DNA of 20,766 nt. Origin: a virus. Lineage: Duplodnaviria; Heunggongvirae; Uroviricota; Caudoviricetes. The translations under genes were made by a program, and so were the position numbers. The stretch lies in the IMG/VR virus record IMGVR_UViG_2600254997_000022, one strand, 5' to 3'. The first letter of the stretch is position 1, and every line of letters starts with the position of its first letter. Under the pieces are notes generated by a model. That model was not told the origin of the DNA, searched no databases, and was given only the letters and a program-made list of their open reading frames with translations. Below, in pieces: positions 721 through 16,964 of this stretch.

Positions 721-1008
721 TTACTGTCTCTGGCAATCTTTATCGCGATAACGCCTGAAGTACCCTCTCGCTTCCTCATCCATACCAAGAGCCGAATGAG
801 TTCGCTTAACTGCCTGTCTTAAATCTCCGAATCTGTCTGTAGTTGCTGGTGGGCGTGCCGCCCTACGGATACATTCAGAGCGTCTGTTTGCTGCATGTTC
901 ACGTTCTTTATCGCCATCTGCCAGCATCATGACTTCTGCCCATCGTGCGGCAGCTCTCCGGTATAGCCCTTTTGACTCCAGCTCTTCAGCTTTCCTGTCC
1001 CTTATCAT
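721..1008 (-). CDS. PerC-family-like transcriptional regulator (95 aa)
   Basis: ORF track. The N-terminal AEELESKGLYRRAAARWAEV motif matches the A..LE..GL.RRAA.RW..V signature I associate with PerC/Pch activators. The protein is basic and Arg-rich. Confidence 0.55.
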   Translation of the reverse strand: MIRDRKAEELESKGLYRRAAARWAEVMMLADGDKEREHAANRRSECIRRAARPPATTDRFGDLRQAVKRTHSALGMDEEARGYFRRYRDKDCQRQ

Positions 1009-1044
1009 TTCTGCCTCTCAGACTATATAGATAAGCAAAAAGGT

Positions 1045-1165
1045 GTTGGTTCAGTTGGTTCAGTTGGTTCAATTTGTAAAGAGTATTGTTTTTAAAAGGA
1101 TTATTCGCAAAAAGTGAACCAACACACCCCATTTTTGAACCAACAAAAAGAGGCCGTGAACCAAC
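1045..1165. repeat. Iteron cluster A (ori/crr-like)
   Basis: GTTGGTTCA occurs three times in tandem (1045-1053, 1054-1062, 1063-1071). An AT-rich spacer follows, then the inverted form TGAACCAAC three times at 1115, 1136 and 1157, exactly 21 bp apart. The same motif and layout recur inverted at 10873-10974. Confidence 0.8.
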
Positions 1166-1228
1166 ACGCCGTTTAAAAACCGCTAATTATGAGGGACATC
1201 CACCAGCACAGGGCTTGTCTAGTGCTGG

Positions 1229-1405
1229 TTAGGTGCTGCTCACCGCGCACGGAGCGGCGCTGGTCATCATTTCGCGGTACCGCCTGGCTATTACAGGGCC
1301 CTCTGCCAGCTGGCGCCTTAATTCCCGCAGTTCTGCCGGGCTGAGCTGGTGGCCGTCATGCTCCAGCTTGGCAATGGTCAGCAGCTCGATTTCTCGTGGT
1401 GTCAT
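1229..1405 (-). CDS. Hypothetical small protein (58 aa from the internal ATG; the ORF extends to 1432)
   Basis: ORF track. GGGGA lies 4 nt upstream of the ATG at 1405 (MTPREIELLTIAKLEHDG...). Divergent from the AlpA-like gene. No recognisable motif. Confidence 0.45.
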   Translation of the reverse strand: MTPREIELLTIAKLEHDGHQLSPAELRELRRQLAEGPVIARRYREMMTSAAPCAVSST

Positions 1406-1573
1406 GGATTCCCCTCTGATGGTGATCGGCATTATATTGCCAGCCAGGGTGATTCTTCACTGGCCGGAGCCGTTGTGCGTGAAGTCTATACGTGAACTCC
1501 ATATGCTATGTGTTAAGTTACAGCTCAAAATGTCCTGTTCCGGTGGTAACTTTTTTGGTAAACAGCGTTTTGG

Positions 1574-1608
1574 TGGATACCAACATGGATACCTCGCTTT
1601 TGGATACC
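1574..1608 (+). promoter_or_regulatory. Three direct TGGATACC repeats upstream of the plus-strand AlpA-like gene
   Basis: TGGATACC at 1574-1581, 1586-1593 and 1601-1608, 50-85 nt upstream of the ATG at 1658 in a divergent intergenic region. Candidate operator array. Confidence 0.4.
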
Positions 1609-1657
1609 GCCCAAAGCCAGATTGTCACTATGCTTAATCTAAAGCAGAGGAGCCTCT

Positions 1658-1843
1658 ATGCGCCTTATCAAATTAAGCGAAGTCATGCTCAGAACGGGCT
1701 TCAAGAAAACGGCAATCTACTCATGGGTTAAGACGGGCACGTTTCCACAGCCAGTTAAAATTGGTAGATCAGCTAGATGGTCGCTTGAGGAGGTTGAAGC
1801 TTGGATCCAGAATAAACTTGATTCGCGGGCTGGCAACCAATGA
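1658..1843 (+). CDS. AlpA-family phage regulatory protein / excisionase-type HTH (61 aa)
   Basis: MRLIKLSEVMLRTGFKKTAIYSWVKTGTFPQPVKIGRSARWSLEEVEAWI is the classic AlpA/HTH_17 pattern. GGAG lies 7 nt upstream of the ATG. Confidence 0.85.
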   Translation: MRLIKLSEVMLRTGFKKTAIYSWVKTGTFPQPVKIGRSARWSLEEVEAWIQNKLDSRAGNQ

Positions 1844-2890
1844 TTAGCTTTAATATCGAGTGGTGGATAGTCCATGGACAAGCTGATGGGCGCACTCGAC
1901 GAAAACGATGCGCCAGGCGGACTGTGTCGCTCATAAACCGGGAGTTGGCCAGAGGACTTAGTTGTCCTTTGCAATTCTGCAGGTTCGCACGTGAAAGTAG
2001 CCAAAACCCTGCGAACCTGAGTGCAAACCTGCAACTGCGAACCACTGAGGTGGCCTCTCATAGCTGGTGGTCATACTGGATATTAATCAGGCCTGCCACA
2101 ACCATAACAATCCATAACAGGCGCATCGCACTAACAATTACTAATAGGTCCGCTCGCAACACTAATTTTGACTAAGCCTGAACGCAATGCTCAGAAAGAA
2201 CGAAGAATGGAATGAATCGTACCATCATGTTGCTCCATGATTTTTACGTTCAAGACAGTTGCTTAATCTCGCCTCGCAATTCAGCCCCCTTGCCGCGATC
2301 TTGCCGTTATCGAGAAGTCTTTCTCCTTTCGGTTAATGCTATCGGTCTTCATATTACCAGCAGCATACGCCATCCGATTATTTCGATGCTACGCGCGCGT
2401 ACTTGTCGCAAAATACCAGGCAAAGGCCAGATTCAGAACGTCGTGATAACCACCAGCACAACATGAGAGGTCATGTAACGCTATTTATCACACCAGATAT
2501 ATGTGATTGGTGTACCCGCATAAAACATCGTCATAGCGCGTCCTGTGCGCATATAAGCCGATAATCAACACATCACCATCACTCTGTCTTATGTAGAGAA
2601 CAGTTTTATGGTACTCCCCTCCATTGTGTGCGTACTGGTCGGACGCAGTTGCAAAACTTTTTGCAACTGATAACCCTCGCGCGCGTACTTGTCTCGACAT
2701 TGGTGTTTTGCTGTGGCAGTGATATCAGAAAAATCTTCCTGTTTCACATAAAGCGGATATGCGCGTACTGTAACGGCCCCATCAACTGGGAGCGGATTTG
2801 AAATCCCGCCCCGAATGTGTAGGCAATGTCACTTAACGTTTGTCGCATACCTTCCAGAAAAAGCGATTCATGAATAATAGGGGCATGAAT

Positions 2891-2906
2891 GCCCGGCGTA
2901 CCGGGC
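2891..2906. terminator. GC-rich hairpin just downstream of the lipoprotein gene
   Basis: gcccgg-cgta-ccgggc, a 6-bp stem with a tetraloop, lies 8 nt past the stop at 2914. The plus-strand side is T-rich (cttattagtt) and the minus-strand side is weaker (cattcatg). It may act in both directions. Confidence 0.45.
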
Positions 2907-2913
2907 TTATTAG

Positions 2914-3612
2914 TTAATTTGGTGCTTTAGGGTCAACATTAAAAGTTATATCACCTTCTGTATTTTTCCCGGCATAGCTAGCGGCTATTCTCGCCAACCC
3001 TTTGTAATCAGCAATTCCATCAGACTGTTGCGAGACGACTGAGCTACCAACTTTCCATAACATATTAATCTGCCTATTATTGAGATAAGCCTTGGCATCA
3101 AACGACTGGAGTATCACCCCTGCGCCGTAGAACGTGTCCGTCACAGTTGTGTTATACGCGCCAGTAATTCCATAAGTAGGCGTATAAACTGTTGTTGCCG
3201 TTCCAGTGGTATTAGCTGTACCGTAGCCACCACCATAACTATTGAACGTGGTGTTCGAGTTTCCGTACGTTGTTGCTGAGCTCACACCAGTTTGCCCGTA
3301 TATTGGGATGGTTACATTACGAGTATTTGAAATGGCCCCGCTTCTCAAAAAGTTCAAGAGAATTACCTGGTCAGCCAATTTTTCATCTTTAACTTGTGTA
3401 TATCCTTGGCTTGATAAACTGGCGGCTACTACCGTAGCTATTTGAGTGTATTCAATCTGTTTGGTGTTCCAAAGTTCTTGGCTTGCGGGGATGATCAAGA
3501 ACTTCTTACCGACAGATTGCCCGGAGGATAAAGCATTGACCGTTACTAACGGTTTTTGTACGCATCCAGCCAATAATGACAGGGATAATATTAAAAGAAG
3601 ATTTTTAATCAT
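2914..3612 (-). CDS. Lipoprotein of unknown function (232 aa), moron-like
   Basis: Signal peptide MIKNLLLILSLSLLAG|C with an L-A-G-C lipobox and Val at +2. AGGTGA RBS. The central region is G/T/N/Y-rich and low in complexity. The gene looks AT-richer than its neighbours by eye and is flanked by its own candidate promoter and a hairpin. Confidence 0.85.
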   Translation of the reverse strand: MIKNLLLILSLSLLAGCVQKPLVTVNALSSGQSVGKKFLIIPASQELWNTKQIEYTQIATVVAASLSSQGYTQVKDEKLADQVILLNFLRSGAISNTRNVTIPIYGQTGVSSATTYGNSNTTFNSYGGGYGTANTTGTATTVYTPTYGITGAYNTTVTDTFYGAGVILQSFDAKAYLNNRQINMLWKVGSSVVSQQSDGIADYKGLARIAASYAGKNTEGDITFNVDPKAPN

Positions 3613-3762
3613 GATAATCTCACCTAAGAATTGCGTGGTTATAAATTATCATCACTGTAAGCGAATGTAAGCCACAGGCTCGTAATGTGATATGGAATTT
3701 TTATAGTTGGCTCAATATCAGTATGCCGTCCTTGGCTATTATGGTTTTGTTAGTTAGAGCGT

Positions 3763-4716
3763 CTATTCCCATTCGCTAACATCTTTCATGCCACTGAGGG
3801 TAGCTACAATCCCGGCCCTTGTCAGTTTCACGAATTCTTCAGCCCCAACGGCATCACGAATTGCTTTCATGGCAATTTTATTGGCCGAAAATCGTTTCTC
3901 TGCTGCGGCGATCGCTGCTGGTGATGCCCCTGCGCGCACTGCTTTTGTAGCTTCCTGAACGGCTTTCTCTATCGCATATCGACCACTTCTTGTCGCCCCA
4001 ATCTTAGCCACAGTATTTCTCAGTGCGCCACCAGCAACCAAACCACTAATCGAACCAATTACACCACCGCCAAAGCCTCCAGCGATCGCACCTGACTGTT
4101 GAACTCCGTTCATGATCACACCGACGATCTTTGGAAGGCCTGAATCGAGCGTTTTGAGAGCCTCAGTTGTTCTTCCCGTGCGCTCTACGTATCGCTGCGG
4201 TCTGGTGCTGGCTTTAGCGAGTACACCGAACTCTTTCATCATTCTACCGAGATCTGGCACATGACGACTGATGGCGTTTACATTCTGCTGGGTCATGAGC
4301 TTGGCAAAATACTGGATACCAGACTCTTCACCGATTCCTCCCTTCTCTCCCTGCGCCACAGCATGCTGAAGAATAGATGCTATTGCTGGTTGGCGTTCTG
4401 CTTCCGGCAGCGCGGAGATAAGGCGGTGAAAAGCTCCCGTTCCAGTGTTTGCGGATGCCTTAAGCGTATCGGCACCTTTTCTTACCATAGCGTCTGATGC
4501 GAGATCTCGACCAAAAAACAGATTCGGCATTTTGTTTGGCGATAATGTAACTTTTAGAGAGATCGTTAGCTTTCTGCCATTCTGTGAGGAAGTTTCCTTT
4601 TTCAGCCATGATGCGCATGTCATCAGTGATAGCTCTGCGCATTTCTCCGGCAATCCGGGCGGCATTGGCCTTACCTGCCCGGGTGTTTGCTTGTTCAGCA
4701 TCAGCAAACTTAGCAC
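3763..4716 (-). pseudogene. C-terminal fragment of the large ejection/internal-virion protein, in a shifted frame
   Basis: It overlaps the 4460-5818 ORF by 257 nt in another frame. Protein-like sequence begins only around KMPNLFFGRDLASDAMVRKG. Contains a glycine-zipper segment, GAIAGGFGGGVIGSISGLVAGGAL. Confidence 0.6.
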
Positions 4717-5918
4717 GCCATGCCTTCATCCCGTCGAAGGTTATGCCGCCACCTTGGTTGTTGGCAGCCTGAAACTGTTTCATCTCCGGGCTGAGTGGAA
4801 CATTGGCTGCTTTTTCTGCTTGGACGACAGCCATCCCATTACTCATTTTCATCCTTTCGCGTGGCATCGTGCTTCGCAGTTCTGCCCATGCCATATTCTC
4901 TGCTGTTTTCATATCACTGAGGCTCGCGATGATGCGCTCTTTAATTGCTGCGCTTTTTTCTGATGCGCTTCCAGACTCAGCACCGAAATCAGACAACTGC
5001 TTATTCAACTTTGAGGATATTTCATTGAAGGCCGTAAGGTGAGCATCCTGAACATTCCCAGGAGTTGATGCCAGAACACCTTCTGCTTGGGCAATTCCAC
5101 GACTACCTGAGCGCATTCCGGGCGTCAGGGTGTTGATATTAATACCAGTGATTTTCGCCGCCTTAGCGACATCATCTCTGACGTTTGATGCCTGCGATGC
5201 GATATGCTCTCGGCCTACGGCAGAACGCGCTGCTTTCGATACATCATTGGCGGTTTCCAGAGTATTTGCTGCCCCTAACACATGGCCTGATTGATTTGTA
5301 TTACTCCGCAATACATCTCGCATTACGTCACTGGCTGTCTGTCCGCTCTTTATTAAAGCGCGTGCTCCTAGCGATCCTGCTAGGCCAATACCTGTCTCTT
5401 TTGCTAGGTCTTCTGGGCTGATCTGCCCGTTCTTTTGGGCGTTCACCAATGTACCTGGCAGGTTTTCTGCCAACATACTAGCCACCTTTGTGGCCGCACG
5501 TTCAGCACGTGGAGCGTTGGCAACGGAAGAAGCTGTGGTAGCTGCCTTTCCTGCACCTAATCCTGTAATAAGGTAAGGTGCTAGCTGCTCACCAGCCTGC
5601 GCGTATGGATCTGTAGGTTGGTCTACTGGGCGAAAGACAGGTGATATGGGCGTGTATGTGCCATCACCCACACCAAGCTTCTGAGCTGCCCATGCTCCGG
5701 CTGATTGCGCCGCATTGACTACCCCCACGCCTGCGTCCATTACATCAAACGGTATATTAGCAATCCCTCTGGCCATCTGCTCTGGCGCAGCTTTCAGTCC
5801 TGGCGAAAGATATTCCATCTCAGGATTAAGGTTAGACTTGGCTATTTGCTGCTGCGGTTCCCCGGCATTTTCATCGGCGAGAAACTGAGCTCTTTTCTGC
5901 TCCCATGAACTGGCTGTT
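4460..5918 (-). pseudogene. Middle fragment of the large ejection/internal-virion protein
   Basis: The 452-aa ORF (4460-5818) stays open upstream to the IS629 junction at 5918 (TASSWEQKRAQFLADENAGEPQQQIAKSNLNPE-MEYLS). This frame joins the 7230-7804 fragment once the IS and one GTT copy are removed. Confidence 0.7.
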
Positions 5919-5972
5919 TGAACCGCCCCGGGAATCCTGGAGACTAAACTCCCTGAGAAAGAGGTAAACAGG

Positions 5973-6299
5973 ATGACTAAAAATACTCGTTTTTCCCCCG
6001 AAGTCCGTCAGAGGGCGATTCGTATGGTTCTGGAAAGTCAGGGCGAATATGACTCACAGTGGGCGGCAATTTGTTCCATTGCCCCAAAGATTGGCTGTAC
6101 ACCGGAGACTCTGCGTGTCTGGGTACGCCAGCATGAGCGGGATACCGGAGGCGGTGATGGCGGGCTCACCACCGCTGAACGTCAGCGTCTGAAAGAGCTG
6201 GAACGTGAAAATCGTGAACTGCGCCGCAGTAACGATATCCTTCGCCAGGCTTCCGCTTATTTTGCGAAGGCGGAGTTCGACCGCCTCTGGAAAAAGTGA
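5973..6299 (+). CDS. IS629 OrfA (108 aa, HTH)
   Basis: ORF track. The stop overlaps the orfB ATG (TGATG), and GGAAAAAG just upstream sits where IS3-family -1 frameshifting occurs. Confidence 0.92.
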
Positions 6300-7187
6300 T
6301 GCCACTGCTGGATAAGCTGCGTAAGCTGTACGGGGTCGGACCGGTATGCAGTGAACTACATATTGCCCCGTCAACGTATTACCACTGTCAGCAACAGCGA
6401 CATCATCCTGATAAACGCAGTGCCCGTGCGCAGCGCGATGACTGGCTGAAGAAAGAGATACTGCGCGTATACGATGGGAATCATCAGGTATACGGTGTGC
6501 GTAAAGTCTGGAGTCAGTTGTTACGGGAAGGAATCAGGGTAGCCAGATGTACAGTGGCGCGCCTCATGGCGGTTATGGGACTTGCCGGTGTTCTCCGGGG
6601 TAAAAAGGTCCGTACGACCATCAGCCGGAAAGCCGTTGCCGCAGGCGACCGCGTAAACCGTCAGTTCGTGGCAGAACGACCTGACCAGCTGTGGGTGGCT
6701 GATTTTACTTACGTCAGCACATGGCAGGGCTTCGTCTATGTGGCGTTCATCATTGATGTGTTTGCCGGATACATTGTGGGGTGGCGGGTCTCGATCGTCC
6801 ATGGAGACGACATTCGTGCTGGATGCACTGGAGCAGGCGTTATGGGCCCGTCGACCGTCCGGCACGGTCCATCACAGTGATAAAGGTTCTCAGTATGTAT
6901 CGCTGGCCTACACACAGCGGCTTAAGGAAGCCGGATTACTGGCATCAACAGGAAGTACAGGCGACTCGTATGACAACGCGATGGCGGAGAGCATCAATGG
7001 TCTTTACAAAGCGGAGGTAATACACCGTAAGAGCTGGAAAAACCGTGCAGAAGTGGAACTGGCCACACTCACGTGGGTGGACTGGTATAACAATCGACGA
7101 TTGCTGGAAAGGCTGGGCCATACTCCTCCGGCAGAAGCAGAAAAAGCTTATTATGCTTCCATCGGAAACGATGATCTGGCAGCCTGA
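6296..7187 (+). pseudogene. IS629 OrfB transposase (DDE), split by a frameshift
   Basis: Two overlapping ORFs (6296-6880 and 6738-7187) each carry transposase sequence: ...GYIVGWRVS in one frame, then SSMETTFVLDALEQALW... in the next. The switch is near 6790-6800 (gtctcgAtcgtcc). As I recall, intact IS629 OrfB is a single ~296-aa ORF. Confidence 0.75.
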
Positions 7188-7229
7188 GTTCACAGATAAA
7201 ACACTCTCCAGGAAACCCGGGGCGGTTCA

Positions 7230-7804
7230 GTTGGTAGTCCTGCTTCTATGTTCTTAAATTGCTGACGTTTTGCTTCCCATGCAGAAATATCTCCCACCTG
7301 AGAGATTTCTTTATCAAGCTCTGAGTAGTCAGGCTGCTGAAGATTGCGATGTTGACTGGTTTGTGCAAACTGCAAGATTTCACTGTCATCAGGGATTATT
7401 CCGGCATCTGCAAATTTACTTACGTAATTAGCCGTTTCATCTGGCAGTGTAGATTTACCGTTTCTGACGGCATTAATACGAGCATAGCCAGAATTATACC
7501 CAGCCAATGCCATACCAATATCACCAAATCGCTTCATTCCTTTATTGAGATGGTTTGCTGCGATATCCATTTGCTTTTCAAATGGCAGTGAGCGCGGATC
7601 AGTTCCACGATAACCAGCATCACTCATTACTGAGGGCATCAGTTGAGCAAATCCTCTAGCTCCTTTCGGTGACTCGGCACTTCCGTTACCACTAGATTCA
7701 TTGCCAACTAATGTTTCCATCGTCCCTGATGGGAAACCATATTTTTCATCGAGATGACGGGAATAGGCTTTCTGTTTTTCTGTCAGTTGTGCCATCATTG
7801 CCAT
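7230..7804 (-). pseudogene. N-terminal fragment of the large ejection/internal-virion protein: SLT lytic transglycosylase domain
   Basis: Family-1 lytic transglycosylase motifs: catalytic E-S (GNESSGN), GARGFAQLMP, and AGYNSGY. The annotated 204-aa ORF (7190-7804) ends with 13 residues (from the junction codon) read from the IS629 end (..TEPPRVSWRVFYL). Confidence 0.85.
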
Positions 7805-9114
7805 CCCTTAAGTTTTGCCTGATAGTAACTTTCCGGCAGATAGCCATGTGCGGTCACATAATCCTTAACCAGTGAAGGATCCTGCAACAGCATTTTGGTA
7901 TCAGTTTCTTCGTCCTTTGATTTGGTTACAGGAATACCGAGCCCGGCAATCTGTCGTTTCTGCATTCGAATAATTACGTCCTGCGCTTTATTCAACTCTC
8001 GCAAAAATGCCTCATTGCTGGTTGCTGACTTAATGCCATTTTGAGATTGCATAAGGGCAGCCCTTTCCCCTTCGGTTGGGTTAGAGCCAAAAGTCCCTTT
8101 GAGGCTAGGCAGAATAACCTTTAGGTTGTATTCATCAGCTTTGGCGCGTAGGCTTCGTGTGTCTTCTGCTACATCAGGAAGGAATCCAAACCCCAGCGTC
8201 AGGGGGTTATAGTTCTGCGAGCGGGTAACGGCCGAAGGATGTTTCCCTACAATTCCCGCCAGTTCATGACCCACTTCAAGCGCAGAGTTCAAGGAGTCGA
8301 TGTTACCTGCAACAGTATTAATTTTATCGTTCATCTTCTCCACTTTCGCCTGCTGTACTTTGCTCAGTTCAGCATTGAGCTTGTCTCTCTCGATGTCATT
8401 TTGAGCACGTCCAAGTCGTGCTTTCAGAACCATTTCTCTCGTGCGTAGTTGGTTATCGGATAGGACTTTGAACTGCTCCATATCGAGACGCCGATTACCC
8501 AGTTCCGCATTAACCTGAGCATTATATGCAGATGTATCTGCGTTCTGCTGTGCAATGCTCTGCCCTTGCTGCTTCTCTTGAACACTAAAGTAACTATTTG
8601 GATCAGCATGGAGGTGGATGAGGTCAGTGATTCTGTTGAATTCCTGTGGGTCATTCTGCCAAGACTGATAAACCTCTTCAGCAGGAAGACCAAATCGCTG
8701 TAATACTGGATTTGCCTGCTGAATGGCCTTCTGCATGGTCAGTGGATCTCCAGTTTGTGACGCAAGACGCAGATTCATGGCAGCGTCAGCGGTCTGTCGA
8801 TTTTGCTCAGCATCAATGAATCCCATCTGTTTTTGAGAATCAGCCATAAACTGGGGATACTGGGCCATTAACTTCTGCACGCCAACACGATCATTATTAG
8901 CTACCGCACTACCCAACCGTGCCTGATATTCTTTTAGCTGCTGGGAAATTTGCGCCTGCTGATTAATCTCAGCAACGCCTCTTAGCCCCTGTAGCGCCAT
9001 TAAACCTACGTTTGGCTGCTGCTGATACTGCACAGGCTGAGGAACGGAAGAACGAGGAGCATTATCATTTTGCGGTGCCATGCTAGGCAGCCCGCCAAGT
9101 TGCCATGTCGCCAT
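7795..9114 (-). CDS. Ejection / DNA-transfer-like protein (439 aa), in the P22 gp20 position
   Basis: Q/N/A-rich with predicted coiled-coil character. The start overlaps the upstream stop (TAATG) and the stop overlaps the downstream start by 10 nt. Size and position parallel P22 gp20 (~470 aa). Homology was not verified. Confidence 0.6.
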   Translation of the reverse strand: MATWQLGGLPSMAPQNDNAPRSSVPQPVQYQQQPNVGLMALQGLRGVAEINQQAQISQQLKEYQARLGSAVANNDRVGVQKLMAQYPQFMADSQKQMGFIDAEQNRQTADAAMNLRLASQTGDPLTMQKAIQQANPVLQRFGLPAEEVYQSWQNDPQEFNRITDLIHLHADPNSYFSVQEKQQGQSIAQQNADTSAYNAQVNAELGNRRLDMEQFKVLSDNQLRTREMVLKARLGRAQNDIERDKLNAELSKVQQAKVEKMNDKINTVAGNIDSLNSALEVGHELAGIVGKHPSAVTRSQNYNPLTLGFGFLPDVAEDTRSLRAKADEYNLKVILPSLKGTFGSNPTEGERAALMQSQNGIKSATSNEAFLRELNKAQDVIIRMQKRQIAGLGIPVTKSKDEETDTKMLLQDPSLVKDYVTAHGYLPESYYQAKLKGWQ

Positions 9115-9791
9115 TAGAATCCAAGCCCCCCAACAAGACCAATAAGCCCACCACCAATAGCCCCGGCGACATTACCTATACCCGGAACAACGGAACCAAG
9201 TTGCGCACCCGCTAAAGCGCCTGATGCCGCCCCACCAATACCACGCGCAAGACTGGATGGCTGCTGCGCCTGACCTGCACGAATAGCGCCAAGCCCCTGC
9301 AAGAGTTGTCCGGTATTATTGGCGTAGTTTTGCCCTGCTGTTGCCTGCCCTGATGCCGCATTCATCCCGACATTTAGCAGGTTTCCATAATTTTGCATTT
9401 GCCCACTGAGCCAATTGTTATAAAGCATGGGCGCAATGGAAGATAACTGGTTACTGGTAGCTGTTGAGCCAAGCCCCCCGGTAGCTTCTGCTGAGACAAG
9501 GTTCTGATAACGGGCCTGATCTGCCTGTGTTTTATATAAACCAGAACCAAAGAAATCATTCGCGGCTTTATTCTGCCCTTCCAGAGTCATCAGTCCTTGT
9601 AGTTGTTGTAAAGCAGGCAATCCGACTTCTGCATACGGCTTGAGATTATTCATCACCGTATTCCACTGCTCGCGCTGCAAATCAATTGCCTGCTGCTGGG
9701 CCTTCGCCTGAGCTTTAGAGGCACCACCATCACCGCCTTTTTCGTATACGGCACGATTGAGATATTTATGAGCTATATGGGTAATTAACAT
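9114..9791 (-). CDS. Ejection / DNA-transfer-like protein (225 aa), in the P22 gp7 position
   Basis: Q/G/A/N-rich, with a C-terminal glycine-zipper hydrophobic tail (GIGGAASGALAGAQLGSVVPGIGNVAGAIGGGLIGLVGGLGF). Size parallels P22 gp7 (~229 aa). Translationally coupled on both sides. Confidence 0.6.
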   Translation of the reverse strand: MLITHIAHKYLNRAVYEKGGDGGASKAQAKAQQQAIDLQREQWNTVMNNLKPYAEVGLPALQQLQGLMTLEGQNKAANDFFGSGLYKTQADQARYQNLVSAEATGGLGSTATSNQLSSIAPMLYNNWLSGQMQNYGNLLNVGMNAASGQATAGQNYANNTGQLLQGLGAIRAGQAQQPSSLARGIGGAASGALAGAQLGSVVPGIGNVAGAIGGGLIGLVGGLGF

Positions 9792-10246
9792 TCGCTGAAT
9801 TCCTTATATTGTTGCCGAGTTAACTGATAAAGCATTACGCCGACGGGTTTACCACATCTGATATAAGCATCATCAAGGTGACCAACACGGGTAGCGCCAA
9901 GCAAACGGATAATTGCCCGTCCGTATTTGGTGGTGTCAGGAACCATGGTAATGCTGTTAAGGAATGGTGAGTTTTCGAGAAGCCATTTGCAGAATAATCG
10001 ATGCCCTTGCAGTGCATATTCACCACGGAATCCGGGGTCGTACACCGCATGGCATTCAACAATGTTATGCCAGAAGTTACGCACTTCATGAACGCCAGCC
10101 AGCACCAATCCTTCGTAGATACCGAGATATACCGCATCAGGCTTGATGTAGTACGTGTGCCCCGGCTCAACAATATTTTCGGTATTGCCAGGCTCGTTAA
10201 GAAAGGCCTGTAATCGCACAGGGTTATCAATAAATTTTAGTTCCAT
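9785..10246 (-). CDS. 153-aa protein in the P22 gp14 position, with a weak GNAT-like motif
   Basis: ORF track. First large gene of the coupled block. DPGFRGEYALQGHRLFCKWLLE loosely resembles acetyltransferase motif A. Size parallels P22 gp14 (~160 aa). Function is uncertain. Confidence 0.5.
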   Translation of the reverse strand: MELKFIDNPVRLQAFLNEPGNTENIVEPGHTYYIKPDAVYLGIYEGLVLAGVHEVRNFWHNIVECHAVYDPGFRGEYALQGHRLFCKWLLENSPFLNSITMVPDTTKYGRAIIRLLGATRVGHLDDAYIRCGKPVGVMLYQLTRQQYKEFSEC

Positions 10247-10262
10247 GCGATGCCATCCATTT

Positions 10263-10424
10263 TCACATACAGCCTGCCAGCGCCTTATCTATTAACCCTC
10301 GTGCAATTTCATGCAGAGTTGGCGCTACTCCAATTCCTGATTTTTTACGCTGCTCTTCCTGAATTTTCTTTATCGCTTCCATTTGCTTCTCACTTATCAA
10401 TACCGGCTTTACTGAAATAGCCAT
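10263..10424 (-). CDS. Ribbon-helix-helix (Arc/CopG-like) small DNA-binding protein, 53 aa; below the ORF-track cutoff
   Basis: The reverse strand reads MAISVKPVLISEKQMEAIKKIQEEQRKKSGIGVAPTLHEIARGLIDKALAGCM. AGGGGG RBS lies 5 nt upstream. The beta-strand/helix/helix spacing is typical of RHH proteins. The stop is 17 nt before the next ATG. Confidence 0.65.
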   Translation of the reverse strand: MAISVKPVLISEKQMEAIKKIQEEQRKKSGIGVAPTLHEIARGLIDKALAGCM

Positions 10425-10439
10425 AACGCCCCCTTAGAA

Positions 10440-10463
10440 CTGTATAAAACAACAGTTATTATA
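10440..10463 (-). promoter_or_regulatory. TATAAT -10 element followed immediately by a perfect LexA box
   Basis: The reverse strand reads ATGAAT-N17-TATAAT-AA-CTGTTGTTTTATACAG. The CTGT-N8-ACAG core is at 10440-10455 and the -10 at 10458-10463. The box covers the predicted transcription start, 15 nt upstream of the RHH start codon. Confidence 0.7.
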
Positions 10464-10517
10464 GTTTCATAAATCGCAACATTCATCATCGTAATTGCAA
10501 AATATGAAACATATAGC

Positions 10518-10552
10518 ACAAAAAAATGCCACCGCTCAGTAGCTGGTGGCAT
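10518..10552 (-). terminator. Strong intrinsic terminator for leftward transcription from the primase/ori side
   Basis: Stem atgccacc (10526-10533) / ggtggcat (10545-10552) with an 11-nt loop. On the reverse strand it is followed by T7. It separates the replication module from the SOS-boxed operon. Confidence 0.8.
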
Positions 10553-10872
10553 CGTTCTGTGTGTCAGGTTTTGACAGGTTTTTTATGGACTCTAAAAACT
10601 ATATTTATGGTGTCGCATTACTCTTCACGGCAGGCGCTTTTCAGTTCTGCCCTTGCTTCTGGCTCCATTGGTAATTTGATTCGCGATCAGCTATGCGGAT
10701 GGTTTGCTGAACAGGCATAACAACTTCTCAAGGGCTGTTTTCTGAACTACGAAAATTTCGTAGTGCTCACTTTCAAAAACGTCACGCCCTTGTACACAGG
10801 ATTTTACGAAAGTCTCGTAAAACACTCTCTGATGCCAGCCAGGTGTTGTGCGCATCAATTCAGTCACATTGT

Positions 10873-10974
10873 GTTGGTTCAAAATACCGTGTTGTTGGTT
10901 CAGTGTTGGTTCAATAAAAAGAATAAAATCCTTATAAAACAATACCCTTTATAAATTGAACCAACTGAACCAAC
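10873..10974. repeat. Iteron cluster B (ori/crr-like), immediately downstream of the primase-helicase gene
   Basis: GTTGGTTCA at 10873, 10894 and 10905 (21- and 11-bp spacing). An AT-rich spacer follows, then TGAACCAAC in tandem at 10957 and 10966. The reverse complement aligns with cluster A, including the spacer (atttataaagggtattgtttt vs atttgtaaagagtattgtttt). Confidence 0.8.
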
Positions 10975-10999
10975 ACCTTTTCTACGCACATGAAGAAGC

Positions 11000-13759
11000 T
11001 CATTCTTCAGATGAGTTGTAATCTCCTGGCTGGTAATTGAGTACATAAACGTTTATTTGTCGTCCCTGAATACGTGGTGATTTTCTTTGGTATCCACGAC
11101 CGCTGTTTGGTGGGGTTAGCATCCCGGCTTTTTTCAACACTTCAGCAAACTGTTTTGCGTTGAAACCACATGCGATCTCCTTTTCAAATGTGGCCGGGAA
11201 TGTGTAGAAAATCATTGGGCTTTCGTCATGTTCTCCACGCTGACGGTATCCGGCTAAATCTTTGATGGGCAAATCTGCCGGGCTGTATGGAAATGGTGCA
11301 AAACGGCTAAGCCCATAGGCATTAAGAAATGCCTCCGTTTGTTCAATAATCTGCTGATGTTCTTTGTTACCTGTGCCGAACTCGCGCAACCATGCGTTAT
11401 AGCTGTGCTGTATCGCATCACGGCATGTCTGAGCATCCCAGCCTGTTACAACCTCGCCTAACAGCAATGCGGCCTCCAGAATGGCAAATCGCGCGGCTAC
11501 ACGGTGAACCTGCTCACCATAATCGGATGGGATCAGACTTCTCCATCTGCTTTCGCGGTCACGAACAGTTTTAATTGCCTGTTGCTGGTGGTCTGCCAGC
11601 CATTTAATCCACTCACGCCCGGCTGCGCCGTGGTGATGCTGGTAAGCGTCTTTCAGTGCGTCTGCGTGCTGTTTTCCGTTCTGGTAATCGTGAAAGCGTA
11701 CTGCTTTACTCAACGGAATATTCAGCAGTCGCACCAGTTGCCCGGCTTTGGTTTTTCGCCCGGAAGTAGCGATAAATGTTTCTAAATCCATTTCTCCGGT
11801 GCTGATTGCCACTGTACGCCAGCGTTTTAGATCCCGGTTTCCACCATCTTTAGCGCCTTGCAGTTTCCCTACACCGTTAAATAACGCATAGGCAGACTGT
11901 GAAACACTGACAGGATCAGCGCCCTGACCAACTTCATCAAGCGGCATTAGTCCGTCATTGTGGGCGGCAGCTTCATTTGCCAGCCCCAGCGCGGTTCCGT
12001 ACCACGTCAGCCGCAGTAAATCAGGGTTGCCGTATAAGCTGCTCGCCACGTTTGCCGTGGTGGTCTTACCTGCGCTCGACTGCTCATAGAAATGAATGCC
12101 GAACCCGTCAGCGCCCACCAGCCCAATCAATGGCGCTGCCAGTGCTGCGCCGATCCCGGTCATCATTGAATAGTTACCAAAGGCCAGACGCGCCACGTTA
12201 TCACGCCAGCTTTTCGCGCTCCCTGAGACGGTATATCCGGCTGCGGCTGAGCTTCTCCCGCTGAACAGCACAGGATTTTCAGGTGTTCCGATGATTTCCC
12301 CATCAGGCATGATGTACGCTCCGCATTGCCAGCCAGTGGCATGAGCAACACGCCACAATTCACGAGAGCCACTGCGTTGTAGCCAGTCTGCCAGTATTGC
12401 TCTGAGGCTGCTTTTGGTCGTGACATTTACCCCACCAGCTTTAAGTGTGCGCCATCCTTCACGTTCACCAATATCAGCCAGTGGAATGGCAGCGGTTGTC
12501 GGCGTTTCAGAACCAAACGACAGCCAGCGAAGAATGAGATACTGGTCTTTATCGTCTCTGCCAGTACCGATAACGCTTAACGGAGAACATAACCAGCTTT
12601 CGTTATTGATGATTTCTCCACTCTGGCTGTCAGCTCTCGGAGATACCCAATAAATACCATCCTCGCGGCTTTCTATTCTTGGTTTCAGTGGGTCGGTATC
12701 CATAACCTTAAAATCGCTTCCCTCAATGGTCTGTGGCTCCTGTTTCACGCCATTACCCTGTGGTTGGTACATTGACTTATTGAACGCTTCTGTGGCGCAT
12801 TTAATGCCGTGTTTTTGGTGGTAATCATTCCAGTCTGCTTTGTGATCTGTCGGGGGTAATGCCACCCATCCAGAAACAGATAAAGCTGCTTTTTCTGCTG
12901 CTCTTCTCCCCGTGTTTTGTCTTCCTTCGCTGTGGTCGTTATCCGCAGCAATGATGATTTGTGCTGAAGGAAATTTATCCCGCAGTACCTGGGCGACATA
13001 TAACAGGTTCCCGGCATCAATCGCCGCCACTGTCAGCGCCTCTGGGCGAATTAAATGGGCAGATAATGCCGTTGCCAGCCCTTCTGCGATTAAGATGCTC
13101 TGTGTTGTTTCTGGTGCGTTTATGGCGTGATATGCCCCTCGCTTTGCTGAACCTGTCAGGAGTCTTTTTTCACCATGTGAGGTAATAGTCTGTGCTGCTG
13201 TGACTGCGCCGGATTTATCCACCAGCGCCAGCAACAGAGATCCATCGGGCAACACGGGGAATGTAAAATCACCTACCCCTTTCGCAACCAGATAATCAGA
13301 TTTGCCGTTTACAGCCTTTCTGCGCATGTCATCAAACTGACGGGAAAACGTATCCCGTCTTTGTTGTTCGTCCTTCTCTGCCCTTTTCAGGCGCTCCTGT
13401 TCGCGTCGCTGGCGCTTGGTTTCCAGTTGTTCCCGTTTCTGGCTGGTGGCTTCTGGTGTTTCCGTTGTCCGGTAATCAATACCCAGAACATCAGCGGCAA
13501 GAAGCGCCGCCTCTGTTGTGTCGCAGTTATTTACGCGTTTAATTAAATCCAGCCCATCACCAGCGCCGCACTGATTACAGATGAAGCTACCGCGCCCGTT
13601 GTCATCGAACCGGAATCGATCTTTTCCCCCACATGCAGGGCAGGGAGCATGACGGCGCGGAGAGTCAGGGACATTTATGTTCAGGCAGCCCAGCACATGA
13701 GGCCAGTTGTTTTCAGACGCACTGATAACCTGACGGATAAGATCAATGTTTCGCATCAC
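11000..13759 (-). CDS. Primase-helicase, P4 alpha-like (919 aa)
   Basis: N-terminal zinc ribbon CPACGGKDRFRF..FICNQCG. TOPRIM-like acidic motifs (ILIAEGLATALS, IIIAADNDHSE). Walker A in YEQSSAGKTTTANV. The long C-terminal region fits an origin-binding domain. Confidence 0.9.
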   Translation of the reverse strand: MMRNIDLIRQVISASENNWPHVLGCLNINVPDSPRRHAPCPACGGKDRFRFDDNGRGSFICNQCGAGDGLDLIKRVNNCDTTEAALLAADVLGIDYRTTETPEATSQKREQLETKRQRREQERLKRAEKDEQQRRDTFSRQFDDMRRKAVNGKSDYLVAKGVGDFTFPVLPDGSLLLALVDKSGAVTAAQTITSHGEKRLLTGSAKRGAYHAINAPETTQSILIAEGLATALSAHLIRPEALTVAAIDAGNLLYVAQVLRDKFPSAQIIIAADNDHSEGRQNTGRRAAEKAALSVSGWVALPPTDHKADWNDYHQKHGIKCATEAFNKSMYQPQGNGVKQEPQTIEGSDFKVMDTDPLKPRIESREDGIYWVSPRADSQSGEIINNESWLCSPLSVIGTGRDDKDQYLILRWLSFGSETPTTAAIPLADIGEREGWRTLKAGGVNVTTKSSLRAILADWLQRSGSRELWRVAHATGWQCGAYIMPDGEIIGTPENPVLFSGRSSAAAGYTVSGSAKSWRDNVARLAFGNYSMMTGIGAALAAPLIGLVGADGFGIHFYEQSSAGKTTTANVASSLYGNPDLLRLTWYGTALGLANEAAAHNDGLMPLDEVGQGADPVSVSQSAYALFNGVGKLQGAKDGGNRDLKRWRTVAISTGEMDLETFIATSGRKTKAGQLVRLLNIPLSKAVRFHDYQNGKQHADALKDAYQHHHGAAGREWIKWLADHQQQAIKTVRDRESRWRSLIPSDYGEQVHRVAARFAILEAALLLGEVVTGWDAQTCRDAIQHSYNAWLREFGTGNKEHQQIIEQTEAFLNAYGLSRFAPFPYSPADLPIKDLAGYRQRGEHDESPMIFYTFPATFEKEIACGFNAKQFAEVLKKAGMLTPPNSGRGYQRKSPRIQGRQINVYVLNYQPGDYNSSEE

Positions 13760-14114
13760 CGTACCCCACGTGGTCTATAGCGTTTGCGATATGGCTAACC
13801 AGCATCTGCCACTTGGTTATTCCGTAATCAGTCAGCATGCCATCATTGTTTAGCCACATATCAAATTCAGCGGTTGTCGCAAGTTTCCACTGATCGCCGT
13901 GGACAGTTCTCATTGCTGGGTACATGAATGCGCAAATCAGATCACAAACATCTGACGGCTTCAGAGATGTAGTAATGGTGCGTCCCTCTGGCGTCTGAAT
14001 TGCCATTTTCTCTTCACCAGTAGAATGAAGGTTATGAATCCACACAGCACCAGCAATCTTTGCCACCTGCTCTCCGATTGCGGAGCTAAGCGCCATTTCT
14101 GCATTTTCACGCAT
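13743..14114 (-). CDS. Hypothetical protein (123 aa)
   Basis: GGGAGG RBS 6 nt upstream. Overlaps the primase start by 17 nt and the upstream stop by 8 nt. Confidence 0.65.
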   Translation of the reverse strand: MRENAEMALSSAIGEQVAKIAGAVWIHNLHSTGEEKMAIQTPEGRTITTSLKPSDVCDLICAFMYPAMRTVHGDQWKLATTAEFDMWLNNDGMLTDYGITKWQMLVSHIANAIDHVGYGDAKH

Positions 14115-14448
14115 GAGAACCTCCCGCTACAGTTGCGCCCATGTCATTAACCATGCTTTGCCATATCTCACGCCCGACGTCAGTCAATCCGTCCTTATTG
14201 ACGCAACGCTCAAGAAGCTCGATCCCCACGGTTTCCCACTGCGGGTAGAACACTTTCATGGCTGCCAGTGTGTAGCTATCGATCAGGCTGCGAACGCCTT
14301 TTACTCCATTGACGATTTCCACACGTACGGCCTTGCCGTCCGCATCAACCATGAAATAGTCCCCGTCGCTGGTGGAGGTAATGTGGTTATACAGTGCCGA
14401 CGCATACTTATTTGCCAGCGCATTCAGTCGGAAATTTTTAGTAATCAT
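14107..14448 (-). CDS. Hypothetical protein (113 aa)
   Basis: ORF track. GGATGGAG RBS. Coupled to the downstream gene. Confidence 0.65.
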   Translation of the reverse strand: MITKNFRLNALANKYASALYNHITSTSDGDYFMVDADGKAVRVEIVNGVKGVRSLIDSYTLAAMKVFYPQWETVGIELLERCVNKDGLTDVGREIWQSMVNDMGATVAGGSHA

Positions 14449-14458
14449 GGCTCCATCC

Positions 14459-15061
14459 TCAGTGCGTCACTGGTTCCGCTGGCATGCCGTTTTCATTCAG
14501 TTCAGCTATAAAGCTGTTGTGAAGTTCAGCAAGCGTTTCACGACCAAATGGAGTCAGTGCTCCTTGTTCCACATCCATCATGGCTCTGTAGAAAATGATG
14601 GCGCGTTCTGTGCCAGACTCGATGCCAAAACGTTCTATCATCGCGCCCTCAATGTTGTTTGCCATAGCGAGACGCTCTGCTACTGGATACAGCGGCATGG
14701 CGACGATGCCGTTGGAATAAACAGCCACTTCGGAAGGATTGCCAGTATCATCAATGATGCTGACAGTGCCGTTTTCCTCTCTCATTTCCAGCATGAATAC
14801 TGTTGCGATCAGCCATCTCCACATAATGACGTTATGCTGTGATGTGTAATCGAAATATCCCTGGTTGCCGCCATCGGCAATAGCGAGATGTATTGACATA
14901 CCTTCATCTGGTTTATCGTCATAATCCCCGGCATCCAGACGATTTACGGCATCAATATATGAGACGGCCTCAACGCGTTCTGTCATGCCATCGTTGCTGC
15001 GGTACATGATGTTTACGCCGTCAGGCGTTGCTTCTGCATGGAACGTTAAGAAATTATTCAT
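14459..15061 (-). CDS. Hypothetical protein (200 aa from MNNFLTFHAE; the track ORF extends to 15166)
   Basis: The ATG at 15061 overlaps the stop of the upstream ORF (ATGAATAA). The longer N-terminal extension would overlap that ORF by more than 100 nt. Confidence 0.6.
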   Translation of the reverse strand: MNNFLTFHAEATPDGVNIMYRSNDGMTERVEAVSYIDAVNRLDAGDYDDKPDEGMSIHLAIADGGNQGYFDYTSQHNVIMWRWLIATVFMLEMREENGTVSIIDDTGNPSEVAVYSNGIVAMPLYPVAERLAMANNIEGAMIERFGIESGTERAIIFYRAMMDVEQGALTPFGRETLAELHNSFIAELNENGMPAEPVTH

Positions 15062-15275
15062 GTTTCGCCTCGCCTGAATGATTCTGTAACTCATATTTGC
15101 CCAACAATTCGTCCGCTTCCTGAATAGCTTCTGGTACGCCATTGAGCAGTGACATAACCGCGCCAATCATTAACTTGTCTCTGTTGCTGGGGCTGGCCCC
15201 TTCAAGCCAGAACCCTAAAACAGTCTGAACCTGTTCGATGCGACATTGCGCTTCGATGAGCTGGATGTTGGTCAT
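15054..15275 (-). CDS. Hypothetical small protein (73 aa)
   Basis: ORF track. Start and stop overlap both neighbours. Confidence 0.55.
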   Translation of the reverse strand: MTNIQLIEAQCRIEQVQTVLGFWLEGASPSNRDKLMIGAVMSLLNGVPEAIQEADELLGKYELQNHSGEAKHE

Positions 15276-15535
15276 TTCGCACTCTCCGCATCGATTAAAC
15301 TGATATCTATCAGAGAGGTAACTTTTTGTAGCCAGCTAGTGATTACTGTCGCCTGTTCCCCTCCCACCGATGGAAGAATCTCATTCATCACATGAACCAG
15401 ACCTGTGCGCGCTCTGGTAAGCCGTTCAGTCGTGCGATCTGCAAGAGTGAATGTGTCTGGATATGGCTCTTCACGGCTCAGCAATGATTCAATTTCCAGC
15501 TCACACGGATGACGATAAATTAAGTTGATATTCAT
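15272..15535 (-). CDS. Hypothetical small protein (87 aa)
   Basis: ORF track. 4-nt overlaps with both neighbours. Confidence 0.55.
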   Translation of the reverse strand: MNINLIYRHPCELEIESLLSREEPYPDTFTLADRTTERLTRARTGLVHVMNEILPSVGGEQATVITSWLQKVTSLIDISLIDAESAK

Positions 15536-15726
15536 TTTTCACCCCCAAGAATTACCAGCTCTGCACGGGCATCGTTAACCAAAGATGAGCACGCTTTAAT
15601 CGCATCCACGACATCAACAGCGTCCATTTCTTCAGCCGAAAGATTGACAGCAACCAGGACAGCCGCTGCTTGCTCGATTAATTGAAGTGCGGACGTAAGT
15701 CGATGGGCATTAATTGAGTTATTCAT
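15532..15726 (-). CDS. Hypothetical small protein (64 aa from MNNSINAH)
   Basis: GGGGG RBS upstream of the ATG at 15726. The longer form to 15783 would overlap the upstream gene. Confidence 0.5.
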   Translation of the reverse strand: MNNSINAHRLTSALQLIEQAAAVLVAVNLSAEEMDAVDVVDAIKACSSLVNDARAELVILGGEK

Positions 15727-15937
15727 TGGTTGCCCCCGTTTTTCCTGGCATTTCGCCACCTTCCAGCAGGAAATGAACGTCACGAACGGCGAGATCCAAT
15801 ATCGCGAGTAACGCCTTCAGTCTTTCGTCTCGTGAGGGAGAGTTGCTCACCAGAATGTCGTTAATCACTTCTGTCAGTGTGATGATCTGGCTTGTGCGTT
15901 CGAGGGGATCCATATGCACATCGTAGGTTTTAATCAT
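15719..15937 (-). CDS. Hypothetical small protein (72 aa, MIKTYDVHMDP...)
   Basis: GGAGGTGG RBS. The ATG overlaps the stop of the Icd-like ORF (ATGATTAA). The 210-aa track ORF 15719-16351 is an upstream read-through of this frame across the structured leader. Confidence 0.55.
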   Translation of the reverse strand: MIKTYDVHMDPLERTSQIITLTEVINDILVSNSPSRDERLKALLAILDLAVRDVHFLLEGGEMPGKTGATNE

Positions 15938-16124
15938 GTGCCACCTCCATGCGGATACGACCAGCAAAAAAGCAGACGTGATCGCGCACCAGAGAACGGC
16001 GAGCATCGCGTTCAGACTCGGCAGCAATATGATGAATTTTGGCGGTAATTGTCGGGTAATCGCGGCGAACTGCGGCGATAATCCAGATAAATTGCGGTTT
16101 TTGGGTAGTGGTAGTAGCCAGCAT
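15930..16124 (-). CDS. Possible Icd-like (host cell division inhibitor family) small protein, 64 aa
   Basis: AAGGAGG RBS 7 nt upstream. FIWIIAAVRR...ESERDARRSL...CFFAGRI resembles what I recall of P1 Icd-like proteins. Sits directly behind a c4-like structured leader. Confidence 0.45.
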   Translation of the reverse strand: MLATTTTQKPQFIWIIAAVRRDYPTITAKIHHIAAESERDARRSLVRDHVCFFAGRIRMEVAHD

Positions 16125-16143
16125 GTGGCAGCCTCCTTGTACT

Positions 16144-16261
16144 GGGAATTCTTCCCACCACCGGAGCTGCGAAACTCGCTGGTGGTGGACTGAACAGAGT
16201 TCGCAGTACCGGCGTACAAGGAAACCGGCCAGCCTTTCGGCTGCCCTGTCCAGCCCACCAT
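16144..16261 (-). ncRNA. Candidate c4 / CI-type antisense (immunity) RNA or cis leader
   Basis: Dense stems on the reverse strand: CAGCC-GAAA-GGCTG, GTAC-GCCG-GTAC, CCACCACC...GGTGGTGG, CTGCGAA...TTCGCAG. Two segments are complementary to the contiguous RBS region GTACAAGGAGGCTGCC of the downstream ORF: GGCAGCC (+ coordinates 16239-16245) and TCCTTGTAC (+ coordinates 16214-16222). Confidence 0.5.
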
Positions 16262-16281
16262 AATTTTACAAGCGACGCGGA

Positions 16282-16788: not shown

Positions 16789-16964
16789 TTGTTAACCTCC
16801 GTGAACTCCTTCATGAAACGTGCCAGCGGTTGTACGCATGGCGATTGATACCCGTCGCGATAAAACGTCACTCGGTTGTGAGACACGCTTTCGACAGTAA
16901 CGAGTGCTCCGTGGGCATCTTTGTAGCGTTTTTGGGGTTGTGGTGTTCCTGTCGGTTTAAACAT
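16782..16964 (-). CDS. Small protein (60 aa from MFKPTGTPQ), possibly DUF4222-like
   Basis: GGAGG RBS. The ATG overlaps the antirepressor stop (ATGTTTAA). The KRYKDAHGALVTVESVSHNRVTFYRDGYQSPCVQP pattern recalls DUF4222 phage proteins, from memory. Confidence 0.5.
   Translation of the reverse strand: MFKPTGTPQPQKRYKDAHGALVTVESVSHNRVTFYRDGYQSPCVQPLARFMKEFTEVNKC

Follow-up and report, generated by a model that had tools for sequence, protein, structure and literature searches.

Several phage lipoproteins are encoded beside host-entry genes and stop DNA entry at the envelope, among them Llp of T5, Cor of phi80, N15 and HK022, and Ltp of TP-J34, the targets of these proteins being FhuA and the tape measure. 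At the inner membrane, SieA of phage P22 blocks the gp20/gp16 DNA-delivery conduit (PMC10883804). Homologues of TraT, the lipoprotein of F/IncF plasmids, are widespread in chromosomes and have been co-opted repeatedly by mobile elements (PMC11733297). EcCIMP1 of Escherichia coli strain MP1 is a 19,963-bp phage-inducible chromosomal island (PICI) that is excised and transduced only with its helper, the P22-like Lederbergvirus Kapi1, and that "contributes to superinfection immunity" of Kapi1 lysogens, through a determinant that was not identified (PMC11773190). Neither PADLOC nor DefenseFinder detected a system in EcCIMP1, and its authors suggested a novel mechanism (PMC11773190). The stretch of DNA described here, IMG/VR record IMGVR_UViG_2600254997_000022 (20,766 nucleotides, referred to in full as the window), carries an island of the EcCIMP1 type. 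The subject of this report is a gene within it for a lipoprotein of 232 residues, which has a conserved predicted β-hairpin on a TraT-like core, has homologues beside the DNA-delivery genes of several kinds of phage, and is a tentative candidate for the determinant of EcCIMP1 immunity.

The lipoprotein gene and its island

The gene is real and intact, reading on the minus strand from an ATG at 3612 to a TAA at 2916-2914. The initial annotation, made from the sequence alone, had described a gene and its flanking signals at 2891-3700 without stating the strand; the gene's existence stands, with the strand now given as minus and the coding sequence at 2914-3612. The length of 232 residues, the lipobox LAGC and the valine at +2 that had been described there can all be read from the sequence. 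The N-terminus is MIKNLLLILSLSLLAG followed by C, in which L14-A15-G16-C17 fits the lipobox pattern [LVI][ASTVI][GAS]C and V18 is at +2. A lipobox is present in 147 of 184 family proteins, and Cys17 is almost invariant in the family alignment, while Asp is found at +2 in one of the 184. In Lol sorting, a residue other than Asp at +2 directs a lipoprotein to the outer membrane, and outer-membrane sorting is predicted here from the Val at this position.

The identity of the gene is well supported. Its product matches WP_000594596.1, encoded by EcCIMP1 of E. coli MP1, at 100% identity, and positions 925-5918 and 7230-18244 of the window are colinear with EcCIMP1 of that strain at 98.2-98.8% identity. 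The gene content matches EcCIMP1 as well (int, AlpA, AntA/B, Ash, primase, DNA-transfer genes and PerC), the order on the minus strand being integrase, helix-turn-helix protein, AntA/B, Ash (with C4 and isrK RNAs), TOPRIM/DUF927 primase, ejection cassette and lipoprotein. The element in the window is devoid of genes for head, tail and lysis. The host element is an EcCIMP1-type PICI, that is, an integrase-primase satellite with a captured P22-type ejection cassette, and not the P22-like phage in which the gene had initially been placed. To judge from its sequence identity, the lipoprotein is a member of the EcCIMP1 gene set. A P22-like prophage remnant is ruled out by the colinearity with a functional PICI and by the existence of two different integrase/attachment modules.

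These modules concern the other end of the island. In strains NC101 and MP1, the EcCIMP1-type island is at tRNA-Thr between proA and yagU. The integrase end of the window (18245-20766) is swapped relative to the EcCIMP1 thrW site (compared with loci L063 and L065); the integrase of 417 aa and an adjacent open reading frame (ORF) of 316 aa match a variant that strain 214-4, for one, has between yicC and dinD, and the first ~26 bases of the window reach dinD. The same core is therefore found under different integrase ends, which indicates that the lipoprotein travels with the PICI core, whatever the chromosomal site. Of 5426 complete E. coli genomes, 76 have the gene, each as one chromosomal copy of at least 99% identity, and no plasmid copy was found in the 5426. 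Its GC content is 42.5%, versus 48-51% in the flanking genes, which fits the expectation for a moron.

A conserved predicted hairpin on a TraT-like core

A word search with the lipoprotein returned 37 homologues, of which the distant ones carry PF13590 (DUF4136). A profile search extends the family to 3840 clusters (at the 50% identity level), of which 648 have E ≤ 1e-30; the top 150 matches for the most part cover nearly the whole profile. When 29 aligned homologues were scanned singly, 17 matched PF13590 (best E = 1.3e-15), so that the remote-homology search suggested in the initial annotation, with its guess of DUF4136, has proved right. The window protein itself falls below the gathering threshold of 32.8 bits (14.2 bits, E = 0.062), its weak match placing residues 49-143 on positions 29-99 of a 152-position model that is exceeded by the GQTG...PTYGITG hairpin. 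Like the DUF4136 protein BT2437 (PDB 4F54), it is a lipoprotein, joined to that family by a chain of homology, and on the basis of this chain and the fold it is best placed as a divergent branch or relative of the DUF4136 superfamily. To our knowledge, no function has been assigned to DUF4136. NCBIfam and PADLOC scans of the lipoprotein gave zero matches. Matches to spanins in PHROGs are at the level of the signal peptide only, and the single match of the family profile to PDB sequences, 18 residues of a glucanase, is due to chance.

The middle of the protein (residues 95-160) consists of 30% T, 15% G, 11% N and 11% Y. A G/T/N/Y-rich middle had been pointed out initially, and the composition is as described; it is not a compositional oddity, however, but a conserved structural element that contains all of the invariant columns of the family: P103, G106-Q-T-G109, T115, G117, G127, T141, P145-T-Y-G148, T150 and G151. 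A low-complexity linker is ruled out, since every invariant column falls here. These columns lie in two motifs (Table 1), with G[QN]TG present in 169 and a PTYGITG-like sequence in 123 of the 184 family proteins. The distance between the motifs ranges from 26 to 42 residues over the family, which would suggest that the stem of a hairpin is conserved and its tip variable.

In the AlphaFold2 monomer model (pLDDT 86.1) the protein has an alpha/beta core, from which a hairpin with strands at 82-124 and 132-172, of about 40 residues each, reaches far out. Residues 100-110 and 143-161 of the hairpin are amphipathic, hydrophobic or aromatic residues alternating with Thr, and the tip (111-142) is polar. 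The nearest folds to the model are PelC and LptE, and both the LptE-like core domain of TraT and the alpha/beta core fold of BT2437 are present in it. Foldseek matches to aerolysin, lysenin and PA reflect the geometry of the hairpin and no homology, with TM-scores of 0.10-0.16. An hhalign comparison with TraT of the F plasmid (NC_002483) gave a probability of 67% over the N-terminal 77 columns only, which comprise the lipobox and a beta-alpha-beta core, and the alignment stops at 'ADQVILLNF', opposite 'AYYWIQANV' of TraT. The next elements after this strand in TraT are a pair of Gly/Ala-rich transmembrane helices (PMC12658005). Since hhalign aligns the N-terminal core, the hairpin would occupy the insertion point of the TraT helices. 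The model thus predicts an LptE/PelC/TraT-like core with a β-hairpin of ~65 residues where TraT has two membrane helices.

The resemblance to TraT (PDB 9E2V, 9FS5, 9FSM), which is responsible for surface exclusion and complement resistance, goes beyond the core. Both are lipoproteins of mobile elements and of similar size (243 aa in TraT, 232 aa here), located in the outer membrane in the case of TraT and predicted to be so here, in both a Gly-rich insertion exits the core at the same point, and here too the chromosomal homologues are widespread and the gene has been co-opted repeatedly by mobile elements. In contrast to TraT, the insertion is a predicted β-hairpin and not two transmembrane alpha-helices, there is no counterpart of the C-terminal hairpin at 180-205 of TraT, and the gene is carried by phage satellites and prophages and is never plasmid-borne in E. 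coli. The Pfam TraT model (PF05818) scores 12.9 bits (E = 0.091, cut-off 31) and has weak matches in 2 of 29 family members. With a score below threshold and the defining transmembrane helices replaced, the lipoprotein falls outside the TraT family. PelC, the ring of Pel export (PDB 5T0Z, 5T10, 9H80), is without the long hairpin, and there is neither a pel operon here nor any sequence similarity to PelC.

Genomic positions of the homologues

The gene order in P22 is 14-7-20-16-sieA-mnt-arc-ant-9. In a P22-like prophage of Serratia surfactantfaciens the order is coat-gp4-gp10-gp26-gp14-gp7-gp20-gp16-lipoprotein-arc-tailspike, where the lipoprotein is an orthologue of 62-63% identity and is in exactly the slot of sieA in P22. 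A sieA-type position past gp16, which had been proposed from the window alone, is therefore borne out by a phage in which the gene lies between gene 16 and arc/tailspike. Between EcCIMP1 and this prophage the identities are 63% for the lipoprotein, 25% for gp14, 55% for gp7, 25% for gp20 and 45% for gp16, which makes the lipoprotein the best-conserved protein of the block. What follows gene 16 varies: phage Dewey has nothing there, P22 has sieA, and Kapi1 has two small secreted proteins, its signal-peptide proteins of 103 and 61 aa being encoded right after the gene-16 homologue on the opposite strand (locus L068, 32628-33170). Among P22-like phages, this slot seems to be generally favoured by accessory genes for exported proteins. 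Presence or absence at a fixed slot and deviant GC content, two of the marks of a moron, are both seen in the lipoprotein gene.

The closer homologues are found in mobile elements, in comparable positions, and the association is not limited to P22-like elements. In temperate T7-like prophages, a homologue lies directly past the last internal-virion protein gene and ahead of the tailspike. In a lambda-like prophage of Rouxiella it lies between gpK and gpI/J, and in a myovirus prophage and one further prophage it is within ~0.8 kb of the tape-measure gene. In other int-AlpA-primase islands the homologue is the terminal gene, EcCIMP1-type PICIs with the lipoprotein are also found in other Enterobacteriaceae, and 12 IMG/VR contigs carry a homologue. 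Some loci thought to be chromosomal have, on spot-checking, neighbours of a prophage or defence kind: a portal gene (L039), ResIII (L019) and DUF2971 (L023).

Other accessory genes are found at several of these loci. Directly after the homologue in the Rouxiella prophage (L062, 10001-11106), between K and I/J, there is a second, unrelated lipoprotein gene (phrog_890). In the Enterobacteriaceae versions of the island, L058 and L059 (15673-18595), an O-antigen glucosylation module of gtrA, gtrB and a GT_STM0557-type gene lies distal to the lipoprotein, a further P22-style lysogenic-conversion/exclusion module that the satellite has captured. In an int island of Vibrio fluvialis (L002, 6536-8708), a stand-alone reverse transcriptase (RVT_1) precedes the homologue by 185 bp, and a KilA-N gene is adjacent, a setting that could be a defence-island context. 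A link between the UG5 reverse transcriptase and DUF4136, considered with this neighbour in mind, was set aside, the paper in question covering an internal connector domain and being uninformative here.

A possible role in superinfection exclusion

The reading preferred here, to which a probability of roughly 0.4 is given, is that the protein, once sorted to the outer membrane, assembles into a ring with a β-barrel stem and interferes with DNA delivery at the outer-membrane or periplasmic stage, and that it is as such a candidate for the EcCIMP1-immunity determinant. The accessory, moron-type gene of the PICI would encode a Lol-sorted outer-membrane lipoprotein, which would most likely oligomerise, by analogy with its ring-forming relatives TraT (a decamer), PelC (a dodecamer) and CsgG (a nonamer). 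The hairpins would join into a β-barrel stem in or through the outer membrane, and the assembly would interfere with outer-membrane/periplasmic DNA delivery by incoming P22-like phages, the helper included. It may in this way be an outer-membrane parallel, from the same P22 slot, of SieA, the inner-membrane blocker of the gp20/gp16 conduit. Like SieA, it is encoded by a stand-alone prophage accessory gene in the slot immediately past ejection gene 16; where it differs from SieA is in being a predicted outer-membrane lipoprotein and in its co-directional transcription. Llp, Cor and Ltp, in contrast, are much smaller and of another fold, and have no sequence similarity to it in the PHROG scan. 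It is by analogy, then, that we infer a TraT-, Llp-, Cor- or SieA-like working of the lipoprotein. That the EcCIMP1 superinfection-immunity phenotype has no identified determinant (PMC11773190) makes the exclusion idea more plausible.

Several observations weigh against this reading. There are no homologues by tblastn in 50,697 INPHARED phage genomes, Foldseek returned nothing from BFVD at E ≤ 0.001, and no exclusion family (Llp, Cor, SieA) was matched in the PHROG scan. The distant homologues occur in 38 GTDB species/loci over many diderm phyla, with an integrase within 10 kb in 4 only, and over more than 50 loci there is no conserved partner gene, save lineage-specific phage genes and integrases. 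A family this broad, with few integrases and no fixed partner, probably did not have an anti-phage function ancestrally. By itself EcCIMP1 gives non-lysogens no protection, and the lipoprotein gene goes unmentioned in the paper that describes the island (PMC11773190); the lack of protection by EcCIMP1 alone means that a simple constitutive block of receptor or entry would be insufficient for the phenotype. In the T7-like prophages the gene starts 11 nt past the last internal-virion gene or overlaps it, with no space for a promoter, and this abutting or overlapping position in a late operon suggests expression in the lytic cycle, rather than from the prophage, in those elements. The hairpin itself is a monomer prediction by AlphaFold2, from an alignment of 29 sequences.

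The first of the alternatives is that the protein acts in the interaction with the host or in the fitness of the envelope, as do TraT, lambda Bor or Iss, providing serum/complement resistance or a change of surface as a lysogenic-conversion gene. The carriers do include human and animal isolates, extraintestinal pathogenic E. coli (ExPEC) and avian pathogenic E. coli (APEC), and in the B2 strains NC101 and MP1 the island adjoins the virulence-type genes vat, MarR and PerC. The version of the island between yicC and dinD is without vat, however, and homologues are present in prophages of environmental Serratia and Rouxiella and in metagenomic islands. Such a role is unlikely, and a serum function would leave the repeated placement by DNA-delivery genes unexplained.

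The exclusion reading can also be put in a stronger form, in which ring-forming outer-membrane lipoproteins with a TraT/PelC/LptE-type core make up a class not recognised so far, their GQTGVSS...PTYGITG hairpins forming a long oligomeric barrel stem. Captured repeatedly by satellites and by phages of several morphotypes, they would serve as a decoy or plug in the outer membrane that jams the incoming ejectosome or tape-measure conduit, a counterpart of SieA at the inner membrane and the missing EcCIMP1 determinant. So specific a proposal is distinctly unlikely.

A role in the lytic cycle is more doubtful again, either as an Llp-like masking, by protein made late along with the virion genes, of a receptor or secondary receptor on lysing cells, debris and vesicles that spares progeny phage, or as a neutralising, in the manner of T4 Spackle, of ejection proteins that bear peptidoglycan hydrolases. 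The close or overlapping placement in the T7-like prophages would fit such a role, as would the co-directionality with the ejection cassette in both the PICI and the Serratia prophage and the frequency of SLT, endolysin or NlpC/P60 domains in the upstream neighbours. The link to hydrolase domains is not strict, however, with the upstream gene lacking such a domain in L005 and L013, and O-antigen, the primary receptor of P22-like phages, could not be masked by a lipoprotein. Moreover, independent expression of the gene is suggested in the enterobacterial versions by a gap of 77-170 bp that contains a conserved extended -10 motif.

Equally improbable is a generic cellular envelope lipoprotein, a PelC/LptE-like polysaccharide/lipopolysaccharide (LPS) ring or a sensor accessory, that hitch-hikes with no phage role: the family is widespread in diderm chromosomes among mixed neighbours (SecA/AddB, FeoB, histidine kinases), a DUF4136 gene comes fourth in a two-component operon of Burkholderia (PMC5192318), and the nearest folds, PelC and LptE, handle polysaccharide and LPS, but in E. 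coli the gene is accessory and not housekeeping (76 of 5426 genomes, all inspected copies being in this type of island), at least four lineages of phage morphotypes, as well as several satellite-like islands, have captured it repeatedly and independently in equivalent positions, and several of the supposedly chromosomal loci (L039, L019, L023) are prophage- or defence-island-like. A linkage of the Burkholderia two-component type was looked for among the homologue loci and is not general.

Expression signals and neighbouring genes

The gap 5' of the lipoprotein gene is exactly 150 bp (3613-3762), as initially reported, and the good ribosome-binding site (RBS) described with it is AGGTGA at 3625-3620, 7 nt from the ATG. 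The promoter proposed at that time, TGGCTT (3674-3669)-N18-GATAAT (3650-3645), is present as sequence, but its strength does not hold up, the -35 matching at 2 of 6 positions and the promoter scan being silent. A better reading of the putative promoter is CTTACA (3671-3666), N17 and TAATTT (3648-3643), with a TG at 3651-3650 that would give an extended -10. A consensus promoter scan of the region did not call this candidate, and found 3 sites where 3.4 are expected. The TGATAAATT core of the promoter is kept 5' of the orthologues in the enterobacterial islands L006 and L056 and in the Serratia P22-like prophage (L060), where the protein downstream of the shared TGATAAATT core is merely 62-63% identical.

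A GC-rich hairpin begins 7 nt 3' of the stop codon (a distance initially given as 8 nt), and it is stable, the region folding as RNA at -16.4 kcal/mol (z = -3.65). As the terminator that it had been taken for, it is less convincing: there is no U-tract after it on the strand of the lipoprotein gene, and the scanner calls a terminator on the plus strand only. It is therefore a real hairpin, but no canonical intrinsic terminator for this gene. The T-rich tail of the hairpin (2891-2906) lies on the plus strand only. The hairpin may terminate transcription from the opposite direction, on the AlpA_1/PerC side, instead of or besides the lipoprotein transcript. Of the promoter-gene-terminator layout of a moron that had been claimed, what remains is a conserved extended -10-like motif and a hairpin; with a weak -35 and the U-tract missing, the layout is partly convincing at most.

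Table 1. Features of the lipoprotein locus and the adjoining ejection cassette, in window coordinates
Feature	Position	Strand	Basis
Lipoprotein coding sequence (CDS), 232 aa	2914..3612	minus	ORF and translation; = WP_000594596.1 at 100% identity
Predicted signal peptide and lipobox, residues 1-17, LAG/C, Val at +2	3562..3612	minus	Sequence; C17 near-invariant
Projecting part of predicted long β-hairpin, residues ~95-160, T/G/N/Y-rich	3133..3330	minus	AlphaFold2, composition
Motif 1, P-x-[YWF]-G-Q-T-G-V-S-S-x-T-T-x-G, residues 103-117	3262..3306	minus	Invariant columns
Motif 2, T-T-x-Y-x-P-T-Y-G-I-T-G, residues 140-151	3160..3195	minus	Invariant columns; pairs opposite motif 1 in the model
Putative promoter, CTTACA-N17-(TG)a-TAATTT, extended -10	3643..3674	minus	Sequence; overlaps TGGCTT-N18-GATAAT; core conserved
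RBS, AGGTGAG, 6-7 nt 5' of ATG	3619..3625	minus	Sequence; GGTGAG kept in orthologous islands
GC-rich hairpin, GCCCGG-TACG-CCGGGC, 6-bp stem, 4-nt loop	2891..2906	minus	Scan; RNA fold
SLT and P22-gp16-like ejection gene, 906 aa when intact, pseudogene here	3763..7804	minus	Pfam SLT; comparison with MP1
gp20 (7795-9114), gp7 (9114-9791), gp14/DUF2824 (9785-10246)	7795..10246	minus	Pfam Inj_translocase, P22_gp7, DUF2824

Upstream of the lipoprotein gene, the PICI possesses a complete P22-type ejection cassette, consisting of gp14/DUF2824, gp7, gp20 and an SLT-fused gp16. PF26808 (Phage_P22_gp16) is found in orthologues of the gp16-like gene, the product of which is ~46-52% identical to its nearest matches in sequenced phages. 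In the window this gene is broken by an insertion sequence (IS) at 5919-7229 and by a separate 1-nt insertion (~4460-4716), and the adjacent lipoprotein gene is intact. The IS is of the IS3 family, is ~1311 bp long with a 3-bp target duplication, and is presumably IS629-like. It holds an ALIL frameshifting pseudoknot at 6254-6370, and its orfB is apparently split (6296-6880 and 6738-7187). The genes of the cassette were treated as possible packaging genes in the description of EcCIMP1 (PMC11773190).

Two RNAs, C4 (antisense, 81 bits) and isrK (Hfq-binding, 57 bits), lie at 16178-16407, just upstream of ash, an icd-like gene and antA/B. The PICI thus contains an RNA-based immunity module of the P1/P7/P4 type.

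Conclusions

The EcCIMP1 island has been described before, and the lipoprotein is annotated in it as a 'hypothetical protein'. New here are the recognition of a subfamily with a conserved hairpin, its TraT-like architecture, and the finding that its genes lie time and again next to ejection and tail-tip genes, in different types of phage and in satellites. More than 3800 clusters, labelled at best as DUF4136, share the strikingly conserved predicted β-hairpin on a TraT/PelC/LptE fold, and the lipoprotein gene adjoins the DNA-delivery genes in phages with at least four kinds of tail. The gene is a concrete candidate for the published and unexplained superinfection-immunity phenotype of EcCIMP1. 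If a block of entry at the outer membrane is indeed its function, this would be a new and phylogenetically widespread mechanism of exclusion, which would be relevant to the prediction of host range in phage therapy and to the biology of satellites and their helpers.

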